Assembly (NCBI GenBank): GCA_944321365.1
Contig: CALULA010000004.1
Location: 42,907-106,906 of the forward strand
Source of the DNA: an uncultured Paraprevotella sp.
GTDB taxonomy: Bacteria > Bacteroidota > Bacteroidia > Bacteroidales > Bacteroidaceae
Direction of reading: 5' to 3'
Length of the DNA stretch: 64,000 nucleotides
A program made the position numbers and the translations under genes. A model generated the notes under the pieces. That model was not told the DNA's origin. It worked only from the letters and a program-made list of their open reading frames with translations, and made no database searches. This document shows, piece after piece, positions 42,056-58,022 of the stretch; within the stretch, counting starts at the first letter, position 1, and every line of letters begins with the position of its first letter.

Positions 42056-42238
42056 TTACCACAAGTCCCAGCCGTTGTTGCGGTTGGCGTCGGCCGCATC
42101 GATGCCGAAATCGGAGGCATCTCCGCCGAAGTCTATACCCAGATCGTCCGACTTGATGCCGGAAACGGCCTGCATCAGCACCTCGCCCTGCAACTCTGTC
42201 TGCTCCACGGCGGGAGCCACATATATTTTCTTTTCCAT
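42056..42238 (-). CDS. 60-aa YxxP-motif micropeptide (KKIYVAPAVE...VSG...NGWDLW)
   Basis: A-rich initiation region 48 bp after the large gene; pattern matches small peptides I recall following T9SS cargo genes in Prevotellaceae. Confidence 0.8.
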   Translation of the reverse strand: MEKKIYVAPAVEQTELQGEVLMQAVSGIKSDDLGIDFGGDASDFGIDAADANRNNGWDLW

Positions 42239-42286: not shown

Positions 42287-45200
42287 TCACTTGGTCATCT
42301 TCTGGCCGTCCACGATGTAGATGCCGCGCTGCAGGCCGTCCAGTGCCTCGGCTTTCTTCACGCCGCTCTTCACCTTCACGCCGCTCAGGGTGTAGACGTC
42401 TACGGCTTTTGCGGAATCAGCTGCGCTCTCGCCCAGAACATCCTCAATGGCGGTCACTTCACCGTCGATGTCGATGAGCAGGCGGTTCACCTGTGATGCC
42501 TCATTTCCGCCCTCGACAGTGATATAGGCGCGGAAGCCGTTCAGGGTAACGTTGGCTTCTGCATCTGCCACGTAGAATACGTTGTCGCTGATGAAGTATG
42601 CGCCCTGCGGCACGGTGGTGGCGGAATAGTTACCAGTGATGTATACTTGTCCTACCGCATCGGCATAACCGATGGCCTGTGCCGTCGGAGCTGCTGCCTG
42701 AACCGTCACGCCTTCAACCTTGATTTCGGAAACGTTGCTGTTCACCTGGACGATGTACGGAACGCCTGCCTTCACACCGTCTGATACCGTTTCGGCAGTC
42801 AGAATGACGCTGTTGCCGCTGGTCGATACGCCGGAGAAGCGGCGCACTTCGCTGATGCCGTTGTCCGTGAGCTGTTCAGCCGTCATGTCGAAGGGCACGC
42901 AGAAGGTGTTCCACTTGCCGTCGGCCTTCAGGCTGCGCGTCAGGGTGACGTTGGCGTAGGTGTCGGCAGTCACACTGTAAGCCTGTGTCTCGTTCAAGGT
43001 CAGGTCTACGGCTACGGGAGCCAGTTTGTAGAGTTTCATGTCGTTACAGCCGACCCAGTTGGCATCGTTTCCTTCTTCTGTCTTTATGCCCAGCTGAACG
43101 CTTTCACCCTCATTTGAAGTTACAAGGAAAGCCACCTTATATACATTGTCCAATGTCCGTCCATCGGCGATGGCCTCACCCTTGATGTCACCGGCATATA
43201 TGGAAGCGGCCAATTTGTTTCTGTCGCCGATGTTTGCTCTTGTGCCGAAAGCTTTCAGTGTCATTTCGTAAGATCCTGCCGGGATTTGTACGGTCTGGTA
43301 CAGAACCCACGTGCCAGCTGCGAATTCTGAGTTCTGATAACTTTCATAGAACTGGCTCGGATCCCCGTTGTTGGCGAAATTGTTGCTCCAAGAATTGGTG
43401 CAAGACACCCAACCGAAAGAGGAAACCGTAGCTTTGGGTAGGTCTGTCACGTCCGGAGTGTTTAGCAGGAACGTCATGTCGAACTGCTGGTCACCGGTCG
43501 GGGTGGCTATTCGGGCGTAGGTCTGACGGGCAGTTTCCAGTGTGTTGTAGCACTCTTGCAAGGCTTCCACTGTAGTCAGGGCTTCGTAGCCTTCAGCCGC
43601 ACTGATGGCATCGCTGAGGGCGGTTCTGGCCGTTTCGTCAGCTACTCTGGAGTTGTCCACATAAGCCTGGCATTCCTGCAACAGGGCGGGCAGGGAAGTC
43701 TGGAGTTCGAATGCGGGAGCACATACGGCCATAGCCTCGTTGAGTGCGTTGTATGCCGTGTAATATTCAGCCGTAGTGGTCACCGGTTTTGCCAAAGCCT
43801 CATTCAGCTGAGTGGCAAAAGTCCCGGTCAGTTCGTCCTTGATGGCGTCGGCTTCAGCCTTCAGTGCGTCATACAGTGCTTTGATTTCGGTTGCGCCGTC
43901 GTTGACATAGGTCAGGCGGAAGTTGTCAAATTTGAGCGTTTCTGCGTCTTTTATCCATTCCACACCCATGGTAATCTGTCCGTCGATGACCAATACGTTG
44001 CCTACACTGCTTCTTTGGGCTTCCTTGTTCGCTGCCCATGACGCCAGAATGTCTGCGTCATCCATGGCACCGGTCCACTTGAACAGATAGGTCTGTTTCT
44101 GATAAGAACTTTCCAAGAACACCTGATTGCGGTCGCTTTGCGCGAAGCCAATCTGCACTGACATGGAGTATACACCGTTGGGCACTGCCATGGTCTGTGC
44201 CACGCGCCAGTTCCTTCCACCTTTTCTTACCATGTGTTCCGTCCCGTCTTCATTGGCATAGATGTCGGCGTCGGACAAACCGGTCCAGCCGTTAATCGGC
44301 GTTTCATCCTCAAATCCCGGATTCACTACCAATAATGTTGTGACGTCAAAGTTTGTCACACCCTCGTTCATGCCCGTGTTTGCGGCATAGTAGGTTTTGT
44401 ATGCGGCGGTCAGGATTTCGGCCTGTGCGGTCCATACCGTCTCATCGTCAGAAGCCAGGGCTGTGGCTGTCGCTGTGCTGATGGCACTCTGCAGAGTGGT
44501 CTTGGCGTCCTCTGCGGCTGCGAAAGCGGCCAGAACGGTTTCGGCATACTCTTTCGTGTCGAGGAACGCATCAGCGAACGGTTTCACTTTTGCTTGGGCT
44601 TCCTCTATGTTCACTTCAATCGCGTTGATGGCTGCGACGTATTCTTCTACCGTTGCGGGTGAACCGGAAGCCCCTTCGGTCAGTGCGTCCGTATAAGCCG
44701 TCGGCACTTTACCCTCCAGTTTTGTGGCTAAGGCTGTTGCTTCGGCTACTTTCGCTGTCAGGGCAATGGCATAGGCCGTCACATCGCTGCCGACAGACGT
44801 CAGCTTGACATTGGATATGGCTACCCAGTTGTTGCCGTTGTCGGCAGCAGCCTGCAGACCGATGCGCAGTGTGCCGTCGGTCACTATGCCCGTGGCGCTC
44901 ACTGTGCCCCAGACGTTGGTGGTCACTTGTGCGCGTCCGTCGTTGGCAAAGAGGTACAGGCCGTCCGCGCAGACGTCACCGCCGCCTTGGTTGCGCCCCA
45001 TGGCTACAGCCGTGATGGTGTATACACCGTTGGGCAGGTCTGTGATGTCCTGATAGATGAGGTCGGCATCCTGAGTGGCTCCGCCGGTCCAGAACTCTAT
45101 GCCTATGCCGGAGTAGTCATCGCTGTTCAGGGCTGAGTTGTTGACATTGTAGCTGGCCGAAGCGTTGGCACCGTCTTTTAACCAGCCGTCTCCCCCGGTG

Positions 45201-45406
45201 CAGTCTGCGTTGACGACTTTTGAAGCGGTGATGTCTTCCGATTGTCCGGCCGTTTCGTTTTCCTGTGATGTCGCATCATCAGGAGCGGCCCATGCGGTTG
45301 CGGTGATTCCGGTGGTTTTCTGCGTCGGAGTTGTACCCCAAGCACGCTGTACAGTCATGGTGGATGTGCCCATCAACACCGCCATGAATAGTAGTTTTGT
45401 TTTCAT
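42287..45406 (-). CDS. Large secreted protein: three CBM-like beta-sandwich repeats with helical linkers and a T9SS-type C-terminal domain
   Basis: Signal peptide; repeats YQDITDLPNGVY / AQTMAVPNGVY / YQTVQIPAGSY; WNTFCVPF domain; terminal TAIEDV...VYTLSGVKV...RGIYIVDGQK. Confidence 0.85.
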   Translation of the reverse strand: MKTKLLFMAVLMGTSTMTVQRAWGTTPTQKTTGITATAWAAPDDATSQENETAGQSEDITASKVVNADCTGGDGWLKDGANASASYNVNNSALNSDDYSGIGIEFWTGGATQDADLIYQDITDLPNGVYTITAVAMGRNQGGGDVCADGLYLFANDGRAQVTTNVWGTVSATGIVTDGTLRIGLQAAADNGNNWVAISNVKLTSVGSDVTAYAIALTAKVAEATALATKLEGKVPTAYTDALTEGASGSPATVEEYVAAINAIEVNIEEAQAKVKPFADAFLDTKEYAETVLAAFAAAEDAKTTLQSAISTATATALASDDETVWTAQAEILTAAYKTYYAANTGMNEGVTNFDVTTLLVVNPGFEDETPINGWTGLSDADIYANEDGTEHMVRKGGRNWRVAQTMAVPNGVYSMSVQIGFAQSDRNQVFLESSYQKQTYLFKWTGAMDDADILASWAANKEAQRSSVGNVLVIDGQITMGVEWIKDAETLKFDNFRLTYVNDGATEIKALYDALKAEADAIKDELTGTFATQLNEALAKPVTTTAEYYTAYNALNEAMAVCAPAFELQTSLPALLQECQAYVDNSRVADETARTALSDAISAAEGYEALTTVEALQECYNTLETARQTYARIATPTGDQQFDMTFLLNTPDVTDLPKATVSSFGWVSCTNSWSNNFANNGDPSQFYESYQNSEFAAGTWVLYQTVQIPAGSYEMTLKAFGTRANIGDRNKLAASIYAGDIKGEAIADGRTLDNVYKVAFLVTSNEGESVQLGIKTEEGNDANWVGCNDMKLYKLAPVAVDLTLNETQAYSVTADTYANVTLTRSLKADGKWNTFCVPFDMTAEQLTDNGISEVRRFSGVSTSGNSVILTAETVSDGVKAGVPYIVQVNSNVSEIKVEGVTVQAAAPTAQAIGYADAVGQVYITGNYSATTVPQGAYFISDNVFYVADAEANVTLNGFRAYITVEGGNEASQVNRLLIDIDGEVTAIEDVLGESAADSAKAVDVYTLSGVKVKSGVKKAEALDGLQRGIYIVDGQKMTK

Positions 45407-45553
45407 TCTTTTGGGTTTTAGAAATTAAGTTAATAATATGATTTAAACAGTCTTACTTTTCAAGTCTTGCCTGTTCGGGCGTGACGGAAGGCGTTTCATT
45501 CGGTCGTAATTTGCGCTTTTCATGCCCGCTTGTCCGGGAATACGGTTGTCCGC

Positions 45554-45765
45554 TCTCTTCGGAAGAGATACATCGAATGCACTATTGAGTGTATCTTTCG
45601 CAGCAAATATAGGATTTTCACAGAAAATATCCAACAGATTTCCGCCTTTTTTTAAAAAAAGTTTAGAAAACGGACGTCGTATGAGCAGATGTTCTCTGTT
45701 TGTTTCCTTGTAATCAACGGCTTGACGTCTGTTGTAAGGTTCGCGATGTATCTTTTCCGAAGAGA
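45554..45765. promoter_or_regulatory. Candidate invertible promoter 1 (ON toward the large T9SS-type gene)
   Basis: 22-bp inverted repeats with 21/22 identity (45554-45575, 45744-45765) enclose a minus-strand TTG-N20-TATATTTG promoter (-7 at 45604-45611). Confidence 0.7.
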
Positions 45766-45890
45766 AAGACAGACGTAAGGCATGTTGTATATCTTGATGG
45801 TTCTGTATTTGTGAGTTACTTTTCTTAGGGTTATATCACTCATTGCAGGGTGCTTCTTTGGGGAATGCTTATTCCATGGGTGTTTTTTTG

Positions 45891-45942
45891 TTGCGCAAAA
45901 CGTTCTGACGGTTTGTGCAAGCCATGCGGACATGTTGCGTCC
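45891..45942. repeat. 22-bp-period palindrome array (locus F)
   Basis: Cores at 45891 ttgcgcaa, 45913 ttgtgcaa, 45935 ttgcgtcc; extra atgcggac at 45924. Confidence 0.65.
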
Positions 45943-46128
45943 GATTGTTTCTTATGTGGGTTGTGGTGGTGGATTGTGAGAAGTACGGTGTACAGGTGTG
46001 TCTTGTTGTGGAGCTGGCCATAGTGCGGAGACAAGAAAATCGGAGGCTTGATTTTGTTTGAAAATGACCGGCAAAAAGTGGAGTGAAGTTGTAATAAGTG
46101 CTGAAAAAGAATGAGAAAAATCGTAGAA

Positions 46129-46298
46129 CTCTTAGTAAGAGATATATTTCTCTCTGCAAATATAGTGAATACGACAGTCTTTTCCAATCTTTTTGTTACA
46201 TATTTAAACAAATACGAGTGTAGGGCATCTGCTTATGTTGTTGATATACAATAGCCTGTTAAGGCTGGCCTTTGTTGCGGTATATCTCTTACTAAGAG
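46129..46298. promoter_or_regulatory. Candidate invertible promoter 2 (OFF relative to the 46328 lipoprotein gene)
   Basis: Perfect 18-bp inverted repeats (46129-46146, 46281-46298) enclose a minus-strand TTG-N20-TATATTTG promoter (-7 at 46157-46164). Confidence 0.78.
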
Positions 46299-46327
46299 AA
46301 CGCTTTCTTTCTGTGTGTTTGTAAGGT

Positions 46328-47290
46328 ATGAATCCAATGTGGTCTATGAAGAAACGAGTTGACAGTTGGCTTTGTGTCAGTATATATATAATAGGTATAG
46401 TGGGAACTGTTATGATTTCTTGTAATGGCAGTGGACGCCGTAAGGTGGAAGGCCGTCGGGCGATGTGCACTCCGTTGTTGGGCAAACAAGGGATGGATTG
46501 TCCGGTGGCGGAAGTGGCTTCTCCTGCCGGACAGGTCTCTTTGTTCCGATTTCACGAAGGGCGACTGGTCGGAGGATACAGTACCGACTATGGTGTGCTG
46601 ACTATTGATGTCAGGCCATTGGAGATGGAGGTGGAGGAGCGGACGGCGGGTTCCGTCCGTATGGCATCGGGGCATGCGGTGTATAGGCATATACGTATGA
46701 CGCAGGAGGGGTATGTTACCGCCATGAGCTTCAGGCAGCGGCATACAACCACGGCCGGGACTGGCTATGTGCGCAGCGGTTATGTCCATGCGTCGTATAC
46801 TTCGGAGGGGCAGATAAGTCGTTTGCAGTATGTGTATGACGACAGTCGCGGATTTCGTGCTAAAAACAGCATGAAGTATAGCTGGAAAGATGGCGATTTG
46901 CAGTACGTGGTGTCGGATTTCTTCCACTCGGATGATTTGTATGAAAAGCACTATATGATTTCTTTTGTCTATAGTGAGCCTGATACGCTCCTCCCCAACA
47001 GCGGCATCTACTGGGAGCAGATGATGCCGCCGTCTGGCGTGCTGCATGATTTCATGTGGTATGGCGGGATGCTGGGAAAGCCCACCGCGCATGTTCCGGT
47101 GCGGGTGCGCCGCGAGACGGTGGGCGACGGGACGCATCACAGCGAGCAGTGGGACATCCGTACAGAGCGTGATGACCATGGGCGTGTGTGCGCTGTTTAC
47201 TACGGCGACCGTCTGTACCGCAGGTATGCCTATGACCGGACGGGCTGTCCGGACAACGTGGCGGAGGATGGTCCGGGCGGTGCGGAATAA
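46328..47290 (+). CDS. Lipoprotein, DUF4595-like (paralog of 16066-17172)
   Basis: MISC lipobox; YSWKDGDL, PNSGIYW, WYGGMLGKPTAHVP; start could be at 46346. Confidence 0.72.
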   Translation: MNPMWSMKKRVDSWLCVSIYIIGIVGTVMISCNGSGRRKVEGRRAMCTPLLGKQGMDCPVAEVASPAGQVSLFRFHEGRLVGGYSTDYGVLTIDVRPLEMEVEERTAGSVRMASGHAVYRHIRMTQEGYVTAMSFRQRHTTTAGTGYVRSGYVHASYTSEGQISRLQYVYDDSRGFRAKNSMKYSWKDGDLQYVVSDFFHSDDLYEKHYMISFVYSEPDTLLPNSGIYWEQMMPPSGVLHDFMWYGGMLGKPTAHVPVRVRRETVGDGTHHSEQWDIRTERDDHGRVCAVYYGDRLYRRYAYDRTGCPDNVAEDGPGGAE

Positions 47291-47348
47291 ACCTGTTGCC
47301 CGATGGCGGAAGCATTGATTCTTTCCCCTTTTCCGCCCGGTGCACAGT

Positions 47349-47380
47349 ACCGCCGCCGGCAGAGGTCCGGCGGCGGTTTT
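47349..47380 (+). terminator. Terminator after the 46328 gene
   Basis: ACCGCCGCCGG-cagaggt-CCGGCGGCGGT followed by TTT. Confidence 0.75.
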
Positions 47381-47397
47381 CTGTGGGGCGGGACGTG

Positions 47398-47491
47398 ACA
47401 AAAGAAATGCGGGCCGCTTCCCAGCGACCCGCATTCTTTAGTTTTTTAGGTATTAGTTTTGTTTAAGGTAAAAAGATTGTTTTCAGGATAA
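47398..47491 (-). ncRNA. Candidate ~95-nt sRNA
   Basis: TTG-N20-TATCTTTG promoter (-7 at 47497-47504), AU-rich body, 13-bp GGGA-tetraloop terminator 47406-47435 with UCUUUU tail. Confidence 0.55.
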
Positions 47492-57005: not shown

Positions 57006-58022
57006 ATGAAGTCTTTGTATAGAAACATCTTTCTGGTTATTGGTGTGGTGGCTATAGTCATCATGCTGTGCACTTCGGATTTGTCTTACGAAGAGATGTG
57101 GGCCAACATACGACGTGCGGGATATTGGTTCCCGGCTGTCGTCTTTCTGTGGGCACTCATTTACTTGGTGAATGCATGGTCGTGGTCGGTGATCATCAAT
57201 GACGGGGAAGCGCCTAAGGTTCCTTTCCGGACGGTTTACAAATACACCATCAGCGGATACGCCTTGAATTACGTCACTCCTGTGGGATTATTGGGCGGGG
57301 AGCCTTACCGCATCATGGAGCTTACGCCTTATGTGGGGGCTTCTAAGGCCACATCCAGTGTGATTCTATATGCGATGATGCATATTTTTTCCCATTTGTG
57401 TTTTTGGGGCTTCTCCATCTTGCTTTATCTAGTGTTTTATGGGCGGAACATGTCCGCAGGAATGGCTTTTTTCCTGTTGGTCTGTGCGGTTTTCTGTGGA
57501 CTGGCCATTTATTTCTTTCTGAAAGGGTATAAAAATGGGCTGGCCATGAGAGTGCTGCGTTTCCTTTCTCATATTCCGGGGCTTAGAGGACGGCTGACTC
57601 GTTTTATTGTGAACAAAGAAGATTCCATACGTAAGGTGGATGCTCAGATTGCCGAGCTGCATGCGCAGCGTAAGTCTACTTTTTATTTGTCTCTTTTTCT
57701 GGAGTTTGGTGCGCGTGTGGCCGGGTGTCTTGAAGTGCAGTTTATCCTGCTGATTCTGACAGACCATGTTTCTTTCCTTAACTGTCTGCTGATTCAGGCT
57801 TTCACATCCTTGTTTTCCAATTTGTTCTTCTTCGTTCCCATGAGTATGGGAGCGCGTGAAGGTGGTTTTGCGCTGGCTGTCGGCGGACTGTCTATGGCCG
57901 GTGCTTATGGGGTGTACACCAGTCTGATTGTGCGTATCCGTGAACTGATATGGATAGCTATCGGGTTGTTGTTGATAAAGATCGGCAATAAATCCCCGTT
58001 GCAGGCTCAGAAGGTTGATTGA
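57006..58022 (+). CDS. Lysylphosphatidylglycerol synthase TM / UPF0104 flippase-like membrane protein
   Basis: NYVTPVGLLGGEPYR, VPMSMGAREGG, multiple TM helices. Confidence 0.8.
   Translation: MKSLYRNIFLVIGVVAIVIMLCTSDLSYEEMWANIRRAGYWFPAVVFLWALIYLVNAWSWSVIINDGEAPKVPFRTVYKYTISGYALNYVTPVGLLGGEPYRIMELTPYVGASKATSSVILYAMMHIFSHLCFWGFSILLYLVFYGRNMSAGMAFFLLVCAVFCGLAIYFFLKGYKNGLAMRVLRFLSHIPGLRGRLTRFIVNKEDSIRKVDAQIAELHAQRKSTFYLSLFLEFGARVAGCLEVQFILLILTDHVSFLNCLLIQAFTSLFSNLFFFVPMSMGAREGGFALAVGGLSMAGAYGVYTSLIVRIRELIWIAIGLLLIKIGNKSPLQAQKVD

Follow-up and report, generated by a model that had tools for sequence, protein, structure and literature searches.

The stretch of DNA analyzed here, which we call the window, is 64 kb long and comes from the genome of an uncultured gut Paraprevotella species. 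On its minus strand lies the gene of a large protein of 1039 amino acids (42287-45406). An exact look-up of this form returned no record because the public gene calls start from the second methionine; the resulting 1032-aa form is on record. Gut metagenomes contain hundreds of homologues of the protein, and hardly any of these is named. In a confident AlphaFold model (mean pLDDT 83) the N-terminus consists of a signal peptide and a disordered linker. These are followed by jelly-roll modules at residues ~60-206, 355-502 and 640-795, which alternate with helical bundles; the C-terminal part contains a further beta domain and then a small beta unit. A single-domain fold search showed that the jelly-rolls resemble CBM61, CBM16 and CBM22, with TM values of 0.6-0.7 on the target. 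Matches of the whole chain, for example to the C-terminal protoxin halves of Cry proteins, which also alternate beta-roll and helical domains, were set aside because of their TM values of 0.1-0.2. On the basis of the model the modules can be described as CBM-like, and we draw no functional conclusion beyond that.

A preliminary description of this DNA had called the product a T9SS-type protein, and this view holds in part. At the C-terminus, a tail of 40 residues (…VDVYTLSGVKVKSG…GLQRGIYIVDGQKMTK) resembles the final part of a T9SS C-terminal domain. SprA is present in the genome and 13 proteins exceed the TIGR04183 cut-off. An HMM built from 13 over-cut-off T9SS C-terminal domains of this genome gave a weak match to residues 997-1037 (17.2 bits, i-E 4.7e-4); paralogues with the same tail reached 16-33 bits on the same HMM. 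The general profiles, in contrast, miss the tail: a search against NCBIfam and Pfam gave no match even at E <= 1-10, the tail is absent from the 23 genomic TIGR04183 matches, and it stays below the TIGR04183/Por_Secre_tail type A cut-off. It is likely, rather than established, that the large protein is T9SS cargo, and its sequence suggests that it would be exported through this system.

Between strains the large gene varies by segment replacement, and it does so more than its surroundings. When the 42287-45406 gene was compared with its counterparts in two other same-species contigs (L011 and L013), the aligned parts were 94-96% identical and 375-719 nt could not be aligned, while the flanks with their housekeeping genes were 98.6-100% identical. 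Segment replacement in the gene next to conserved flanks fits diversifying selection on a presumably exposed protein.

A gene for an acidic peptide of 60 aa (42056-42238, minus strand) follows 48 nt after the large gene. Neither a terminator nor a promoter consensus was found in the 48-nt gap, and the peptide gene is probably co-transcribed with the large gene. The peptide ORF mentioned in the preliminary description proved to be genuine: in other Paraprevotella MAGs it is conserved immediately behind homologues of the large gene. Small peptide genes of the type 'MEKK.Y..P…NNGW(D/T)LW' recur beside genes for large proteins with a T9SS-like tail (42056-42238, C28:6127-6306 and C21:16560-16718), and in other MAGs of the genus they likewise come after the homologues (63% and 42% identity). 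Peptide genes of this kind also come after paralogues of the large gene within this genome. These peptides gave no match to any family.

Upstream of the large gene a repeat search of the 64-kb window found a pair of inverted repeats of 22 nt, which are 168 nt apart and define the element named Switch 1. The left, gene-proximal arm is located at 45554-45575 (TCTCTTCGGAAGAGATACATCG) and holds the dyad core TCTCTT-CGG-AAGAGA; the right, distal arm is located at 45744-45765 (CGATGTATCTTTTCCGAAGAGA). The arms are 95% complementary with one mismatch, as had been reported before. According to our own rough estimate fewer than 0.001 arm pairs of this kind are expected by chance in 64 kb. The core CTCTTNNNAAGAGATA, allowing for two or fewer mismatches, has 10 matches in the window versus 0.93 expected, and 8 of the 10 are in Switch 1 and in a second element, Switch 2.

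The 168 bp between the arms (45576-45743) constitute the invertible, promoter-bearing segment. Its -7 box TATATTTG (45604-45611, minus strand) is an exact match to the Bacteroidetes motif TAnnTTTG, which is the -7 consensus of Bacteroides (PMC4747536, PMC8748976). A TTG located 20 nt upstream of this box (45632-45634 in plus-strand coordinates, minus strand) resembles a -33 element; it is a partial match, one T short of the consensus TTTG. The resulting layout TTG-N20-TATATTTG on the minus strand faces the gene starting at 45406, and the claim that Switch 1 is ON in the window is correct on the level of the sequence. Between the ATG at 45406 and position 46300 a scan for minus-strand TAnnTTTG returned only this box and the one of Switch 2 (46157-46164). 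Since the only other box in this stretch belongs to Switch 2, Switch 1 contains the sole consensus promoter close upstream of the 45406 gene, in agreement with the preliminary description. A leader of 147 nt (45407-45553, minus strand) extends from the left repeat to the start codon; it is 99-100% conserved across the other assemblies.

Switch 2 is a second inverton of the same class (46129-46298). Its arms (46129-46146 and 46281-46298) are perfect over 18 nt, and its core CTCTT-AGT-AAGAG has the same dyad as Switch 1 with another central triplet. A spacer of about 363 bp (45766-46128) lies between the two elements. The -7 box of Switch 2 (46157-46164, minus strand) points left, away from a divergent lipoprotein-like gene on the plus strand (46328-47290; 292 aa in public gene calls, weak DUF4595 match), which is the gene that Switch 2 would serve. 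A minus-strand ORF of 380 aa at 46292-47434 was considered as an adjacent recombinase and rejected; it has no match in Pfam or any other family and an implausible composition, rich in Arg and His. This ORF is an artefact, and the public gene calls use the plus-strand lipoprotein gene there.

In the window the -7 boxes of both elements (45604-45611 and 46157-46164) are on the minus strand, and Switch 2 may also feed the large gene; Switch 1 is then possibly not the sole determinant of its expression. The spacer contains two terminator-like hairpins (45837-45852 and 45927-45943), identified by pattern match only and both on the plus strand. These could stop rightward transcripts from Switch 1 in the OFF state, and they would not be expected to stop leftward transcripts from Switch 2. 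A crude pattern scan predicted no minus-strand terminator between the Switch 2 promoter and the 45406 gene. Adjacent double invertons under a single invertase are found in the IP-ARG-2 class (PMC8748976). Together, these features are compatible with a scenario in which the Switch 2 promoter also drives the 45406 gene, so that the paired invertons form a combinatorial unit with four states and Switch 1 alone is not an ON/OFF switch. However, the terminator scan is only pattern-based, the leader of such a transcript would be roughly 750 nt long, and the divergent gene at 46328, directly downstream of Switch 2, is a simpler target. We consider this scenario unlikely but far from negligible.

Both orientations of Switch 1 in nature

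The orientation of Switch 1 was tested on public assemblies of the same species, including metagenome assemblies, which were retrieved by exact look-up of neighbouring proteins. The region was cut into flank, leader, arms, inner segment and spacer, and each piece was aligned to each contig. Six assemblies span Switch 1. Five of them have it in the orientation of the window, namely the window genome itself, ERZ24773490, ERZ28614450, ERZ16268074 and ERZ16268164; in the sixth it is OFF. In this assembly (ERZ16268169 scaffold_32, L011/L084) exactly the inner 168 bp are on the opposite strand, while the gene, the leader, the spacer and Switch 2 keep their strand with 99-100% identity. The promoter box, read directly from this contig, faces away from the gene. 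The promoter is invertible, as had been proposed, since an assembly of the same species has it in the opposite orientation between flanks that are about 99% identical. The DNA itself shows the repeats and the promoter with its direction, and both orientations exist in nature. Switch 2 is flipped in ERZ16268164 (L013).

Further searches covered the OFF form and more distant DNA. The look-up of a spurious 59-aa ORF, which is unique to the OFF form, returned just the one OFF contig already known, and a 26-nt query of the left junction found no match in the JGI metagenomes. When the intergenic DNA was searched in 60 relatives, conservation was limited to the start of the region coding for the signal peptide. 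In this comparison the Switch 1 sequence itself is species-specific.

Several contigs end at these elements. The contig of ERZ28614448 (L014) starts at the first base of the left arm of Switch 1, the contig of ERZ16268231 (L088) starts 17 nt inside the Switch 1 cassette, and the contig of ERZ24773489 (L087) begins exactly at the right arm of Switch 2. Assemblers break where reads carry both orientations. Promoter inversion accounts for assembly breaks at these sites in Paraprevotella genomes, and the breaks, together with the differences in orientation between samples, point to ongoing switching within a population.

The same data can be used to judge whether the difference in orientation might be a fixed strain polymorphism, left by an old inversion in an element that no longer switches. 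Each full-length assembly shows one orientation, and only one of the six spanning assemblies is OFF, as such a polymorphism would have it. The left arm (45554-45575) is identical in every same-species contig; in the distal arm of the window strain, the inner half-site reads AAAAGA owing to a G-to-A change. This mismatch is present in the window strain and in two other assemblies, and all three are ON. The change in the distal core might slow flipping in the lineage of the window, although the numbers are small. On the other hand, the arms are still perfect (22/22) in three strains (L011, L012 and L013), and the inner segment is 98-100% identical between assemblies in both orientations. Furthermore, three independent samples gave contigs that break off at the repeats of one of the two switches or just within them, and the assembly of the window's own genome is broken at several sister invertons, as mixed orientations would do. 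A fixed polymorphism is very unlikely in view of these observations.

A dyad site shared across the genus

Each arm of Switch 1 holds the dyad CTCTY-N3-RAGAG. Among the genomes of 31 Paraprevotella species, 23 contain the pattern CTCTYNNNRAGAG-N80-300-CTCTYNNNRAGAG, with up to 16 occurrences per genome; a control with the reversed pattern gave 0 in all 31 genomes. The 2.74-Mb genome of the window has four intact pairs of this class, Switch 1, Switch 2, C5:54791-54975 and C5:100733-100943, each of which encloses a TAnnTTTG box. In addition, six contig ends of this genome are in, or 64 nt or less from, sites of the same class. Matching arms are found at the end of C13 and the start of C25 (triplet CAT) and at the start of C1 and the end of C16 (triplet ACG). 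From the four intact pairs and the site-bearing contig ends it follows that the genome has at least eight such elements. Among the listed hits in the genus a CAAAnnTA box is commonly located within a few tens of bases of the inner edge of one arm, which is the geometry of Switch 1.

The half-sites of the dyad are conserved, while the central triplet is asymmetric and different at all loci examined; with about nine loci in this genome the occurrence of all-distinct triplets is statistically unremarkable (estimated chance probability about 0.3). In the core site of a tyrosine recombinase an asymmetric overlap region is placed between two binding elements in inverted orientation, and these enzymes require identical overlap regions. 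Because the same dyad occurs at both ends of each element of the class, with the half-sites kept and the middle variable, we read it as a recombinase core site. By analogy, the polarity of a site would be given by its central triplet, which would also let the arms of one locus recombine only with each other.

The preliminary description had also suggested a structured leader as an alternative or additional role of the left repeat, and the observations from which it started are correct. It follows from the position of the promoter that the transcript reads through the left repeat, and two small hairpins are present in the sequence in or near this repeat (TCTCTTC-G-GAAGAGA, and AGATACA with TGTATCT). 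The dyad of the left repeat can self-pair, and AGATACA (45565-45571) pairs with TGTATCT (45590-45596) in a stem that is part of the minimum-energy fold. A study of B. fragilis reported that transcription is lowered by the number of repeats which separate a promoter from its operon (PMC4747536). One could thus imagine that the repeats act mainly as RNA, with a structured 5' leader of the attenuator or riboswitch type controlling the gene and the inversion being incidental. However, the 195-nt leader RNA is no more stable than its shuffled versions (z = -0.94; 30 of 200 shuffles fold as well), and a search for Rfam families in the Switch 1 region returned no match at E <= 1. Furthermore, the dyad flanks many promoter cassettes in the genus on either side and varies in the triplet alone, which is the behaviour of a protein-binding site, and the segment has been observed physically inverted. 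A control that acts mainly through RNA is highly improbable. On the basis of its sequence the CTCTY-N3-RAGAG dyad in each arm is better explained as a recombinase core site, with a structured leader as a minor possible modifier.

One might take the Switch 1 repeats for the termini of a miniature transposable element (a MITE or the remnant of an IS) with a chance promoter, since ~20-nt terminal inverted repeats enclose a short non-coding segment and the genome has several copies. This is scarcely credible: when the four intact copies were aligned, their interiors showed no relationship except for the arms and the promoter box, the central triplet varies by locus, the inner segment alone changes orientation with the site fixed and the flanks unchanged, and neither empty sites nor target duplications were seen. 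Judged from these alignments, the same-class elements are not copies of a mobile element.

Elements of this class also occur upstream of relatives of the large gene. The paralogue C25:171 (938 aa, same tail) has a same-class inverton upstream, which broke the assembly, and the same arrangement of inverton and gene is found for a homologue in a sister species (L051; G030:C7), which is 35% identical. The closest orthologues in sister species (60% identity; L047, L048 and L050) have no repeat pair upstream; hence Switch 1 is not ancestral in this orthologue group.

Some further sites were noted. The inverton at C5:54791-54975 is located upstream of three small lipoprotein-like genes (C5:55029-56862), and its promoter now faces away from them. 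Two lone core sites, at C2:235532-235547 and C12:15905-15923, share the same 15 nt (CTCTTGGGAAGAGAT) and are placed mid-contig on different contigs. Recombination between the two, should they be true partners, could invert a large part of the chromosome. At 57080-57098 the window contains a single core-like site, GTCTTACGAAGAGATG, with two mismatches to the motif; its partner is absent from the window.

Candidate invertase

No recombinase gene adjoins Switch 1, and a search of the 99.9%-complete genome for serine recombinases (PF00239) gave no match. Tyrosine recombinases are represented by five matches. Two of these are Xer-like and one looks like the integrase of a mobile element that is cut by a contig end. 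The gene C7:521-1738 (405 aa) is positioned directly before an inverton of its own, which has different arms of 30 nt, and before a capsule locus led by UpxY. This region (C7:521-1979) represents a second inverton class, in which the arms TTTTTGTTGTATATTATGAAGCGACGGACT are separated by 155 nt. An ORF that resembles a recombinase, C7:5093-5956, was rejected as an invertase, since it ends just after the ARHSW motif and is without the catalytic tyrosine. Short copies of this kind are found near the capsule-type recombinase in several sister species.

The tyrosine recombinase C14:3327-4532 has 401 aa and comprises an Arm-binding, a SAM_5 (SAM-like) and a catalytic domain; no inverton is nearby. 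In sister species, paralogues of C14 with 50-57% identity are encoded ~45 nt upstream of invertons with the same dyad (L066, L070 and L081; also L080 and L068). No inverton was found within 1.5 kb of the nearest C14 orthologues (59-72% identity), which are orphans like C14 itself. The assignment of this enzyme hence relies on the paralogues and on co-occurrence. A close C14 homologue is present in all 22 of the pattern-positive relatives and in 3 of the 8 that lack the pattern (Fisher p = 4e-4), and site counts increase as the homologue becomes more similar to C14 (rho = 0.73), a co-occurrence which is confounded by phylogeny and genome completeness. We regard C14:3327-4532 as the best candidate for an invertase of Switch 1 that would act in trans, with a roughly even chance that this is correct.

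A broader version of this proposal is possible but rather doubtful. It holds that the orphan C14 is the master invertase of 8-16 dispersed invertons per Paraprevotella genome, which have dyad arms of ~19 bp (GCTCTCTT-NNN-AAGAGAGC-like) and in which the locus-specific triplet serves as an address that blocks recombination between loci. The regulon would include several paralogous CBM-repeat proteins with T9SS-like tails, and the back-to-back pair of Switch 1 and Switch 2 would generate four expression states for two divergent surface genes. If this is true, it would be, within the literature that could be searched, the first phase-variable repertoire of T9SS cargo.

Proposed mechanism and relation to known systems

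Switch 1 is very probably a phase-variation inverton, in which a promoter cassette of 168 bp is flipped by a site-specific tyrosine recombinase. Each arm would represent a complete dyad site with half-sites around …CTCTT NNN AAGAG…, and the enzyme would exchange strands between the inverted 22-bp sites and flip the cassette. In the ON state transcription would begin around 45597, a few bases past the -7 box, and the transcript, after crossing the left repeat and the leader of 147 nt, would enter the 1039-aa gene and then the 60-aa peptide gene. In the OFF state the promoter would fire into the spacer with its terminator-like hairpins on the plus strand, and the operon would be left without a proximal promoter. 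The orphan recombinase C14 would act in trans on at least eight such invertons. We infer the identity of the invertase, the position of the crossover and the effect on transcription.

Promoter inversion is the main route of surface variation in gut Bacteroidales and affects phage resistance, immune recognition and colonisation. The present analysis adds an uncultured Paraprevotella species to the known cases. It also adds a gene family that has not been linked to phase variation in the searchable literature, namely large CBM-repeat proteins with a T9SS-like tail, each followed by a small conserved peptide. The motif, pairs of CTCTY-N3-RAGAG, is searchable; it yields dozens of candidate switches across the genus, and one candidate for a trans-acting invertase can be named. 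In the literature that could be searched, nothing relevant was found on invertons of Paraprevotella, nor on a T9SS with an invertible promoter or phase variation.

The closest parallels are the promoters of Bacteroidales that are inverted by tyrosine recombinases (PMC8748976). Common features are a short promoter cassette between inverted repeats with -33 TTTG and -7 TAnnTTTG elements, a tyrosine recombinase family of ~400 aa, members of which are located directly upstream of same-class invertons in sister species, and the occurrence of adjacent double invertons. The comparison covers the layout and the enzyme family. In the glycan-locus/IP-ARG clade the invertases are encoded directly upstream of their invertons (PMC8748976), whereas Switch 1 has no adjacent invertase; the candidate is encoded on a different contig, and its orthologues are likewise orphans. 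The targets differ as well: a large CBM-repeat protein that ends in a T9SS-like tail here, and operons for glycan synthesis or resistance there.

In B. fragilis the master invertases Mpi, Tsr0667 and Tsr19 act on local and on distant promoters (PMC4747536). As in that system, one enzyme is proposed here for many dispersed cassettes, which share a motif and control surface structures. Mpi, which acts on the fin regions, is a serine recombinase, whereas the Paraprevotella genome has no enzyme of this type; Tsr19 adjoins one of its targets, while action in trans is what we infer for C14. The S-layer invertons BT1927 and BF4087 (Tsr25/26 class) have repeats with the core GTTAC-N7-GTAAC (PMC4611039). 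As in Switch 1, the repeats are 22 bp long and contain a dyad, the promoter cassette measures a few hundred bp, and a phase-variable protein of the outer surface is concerned; that this class can be locked by mutating one half-site is counted as a further shared feature. The core of Switch 1, however, is CTCTY-N3-RAGAG and not GTTAC-N7-GTAAC, its arms read TCTCTTCGGAAGAGATACATCG, no recombinase genes are adjacent, and the protein family is unrelated.

A more distant counterpart is fimS of E. coli, a tyrosine-recombinase inverton of FimB and FimE that carries the promoter of a surface-adhesin operon. It differs from Switch 1 in phylum, promoter type and site sequence; furthermore, the fim recombinases are adjacent, and fimS is a single locus and not a family. 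In comparison with these systems Switch 1 is well supported but an ordinary instance of phase variation in Bacteroidales, and it leaves the understanding of such switches unchanged. What is modestly new is the Paraprevotella-wide site motif, the family of the target protein, a likely trans-acting orphan invertase and the back-to-back layout of the two switches.
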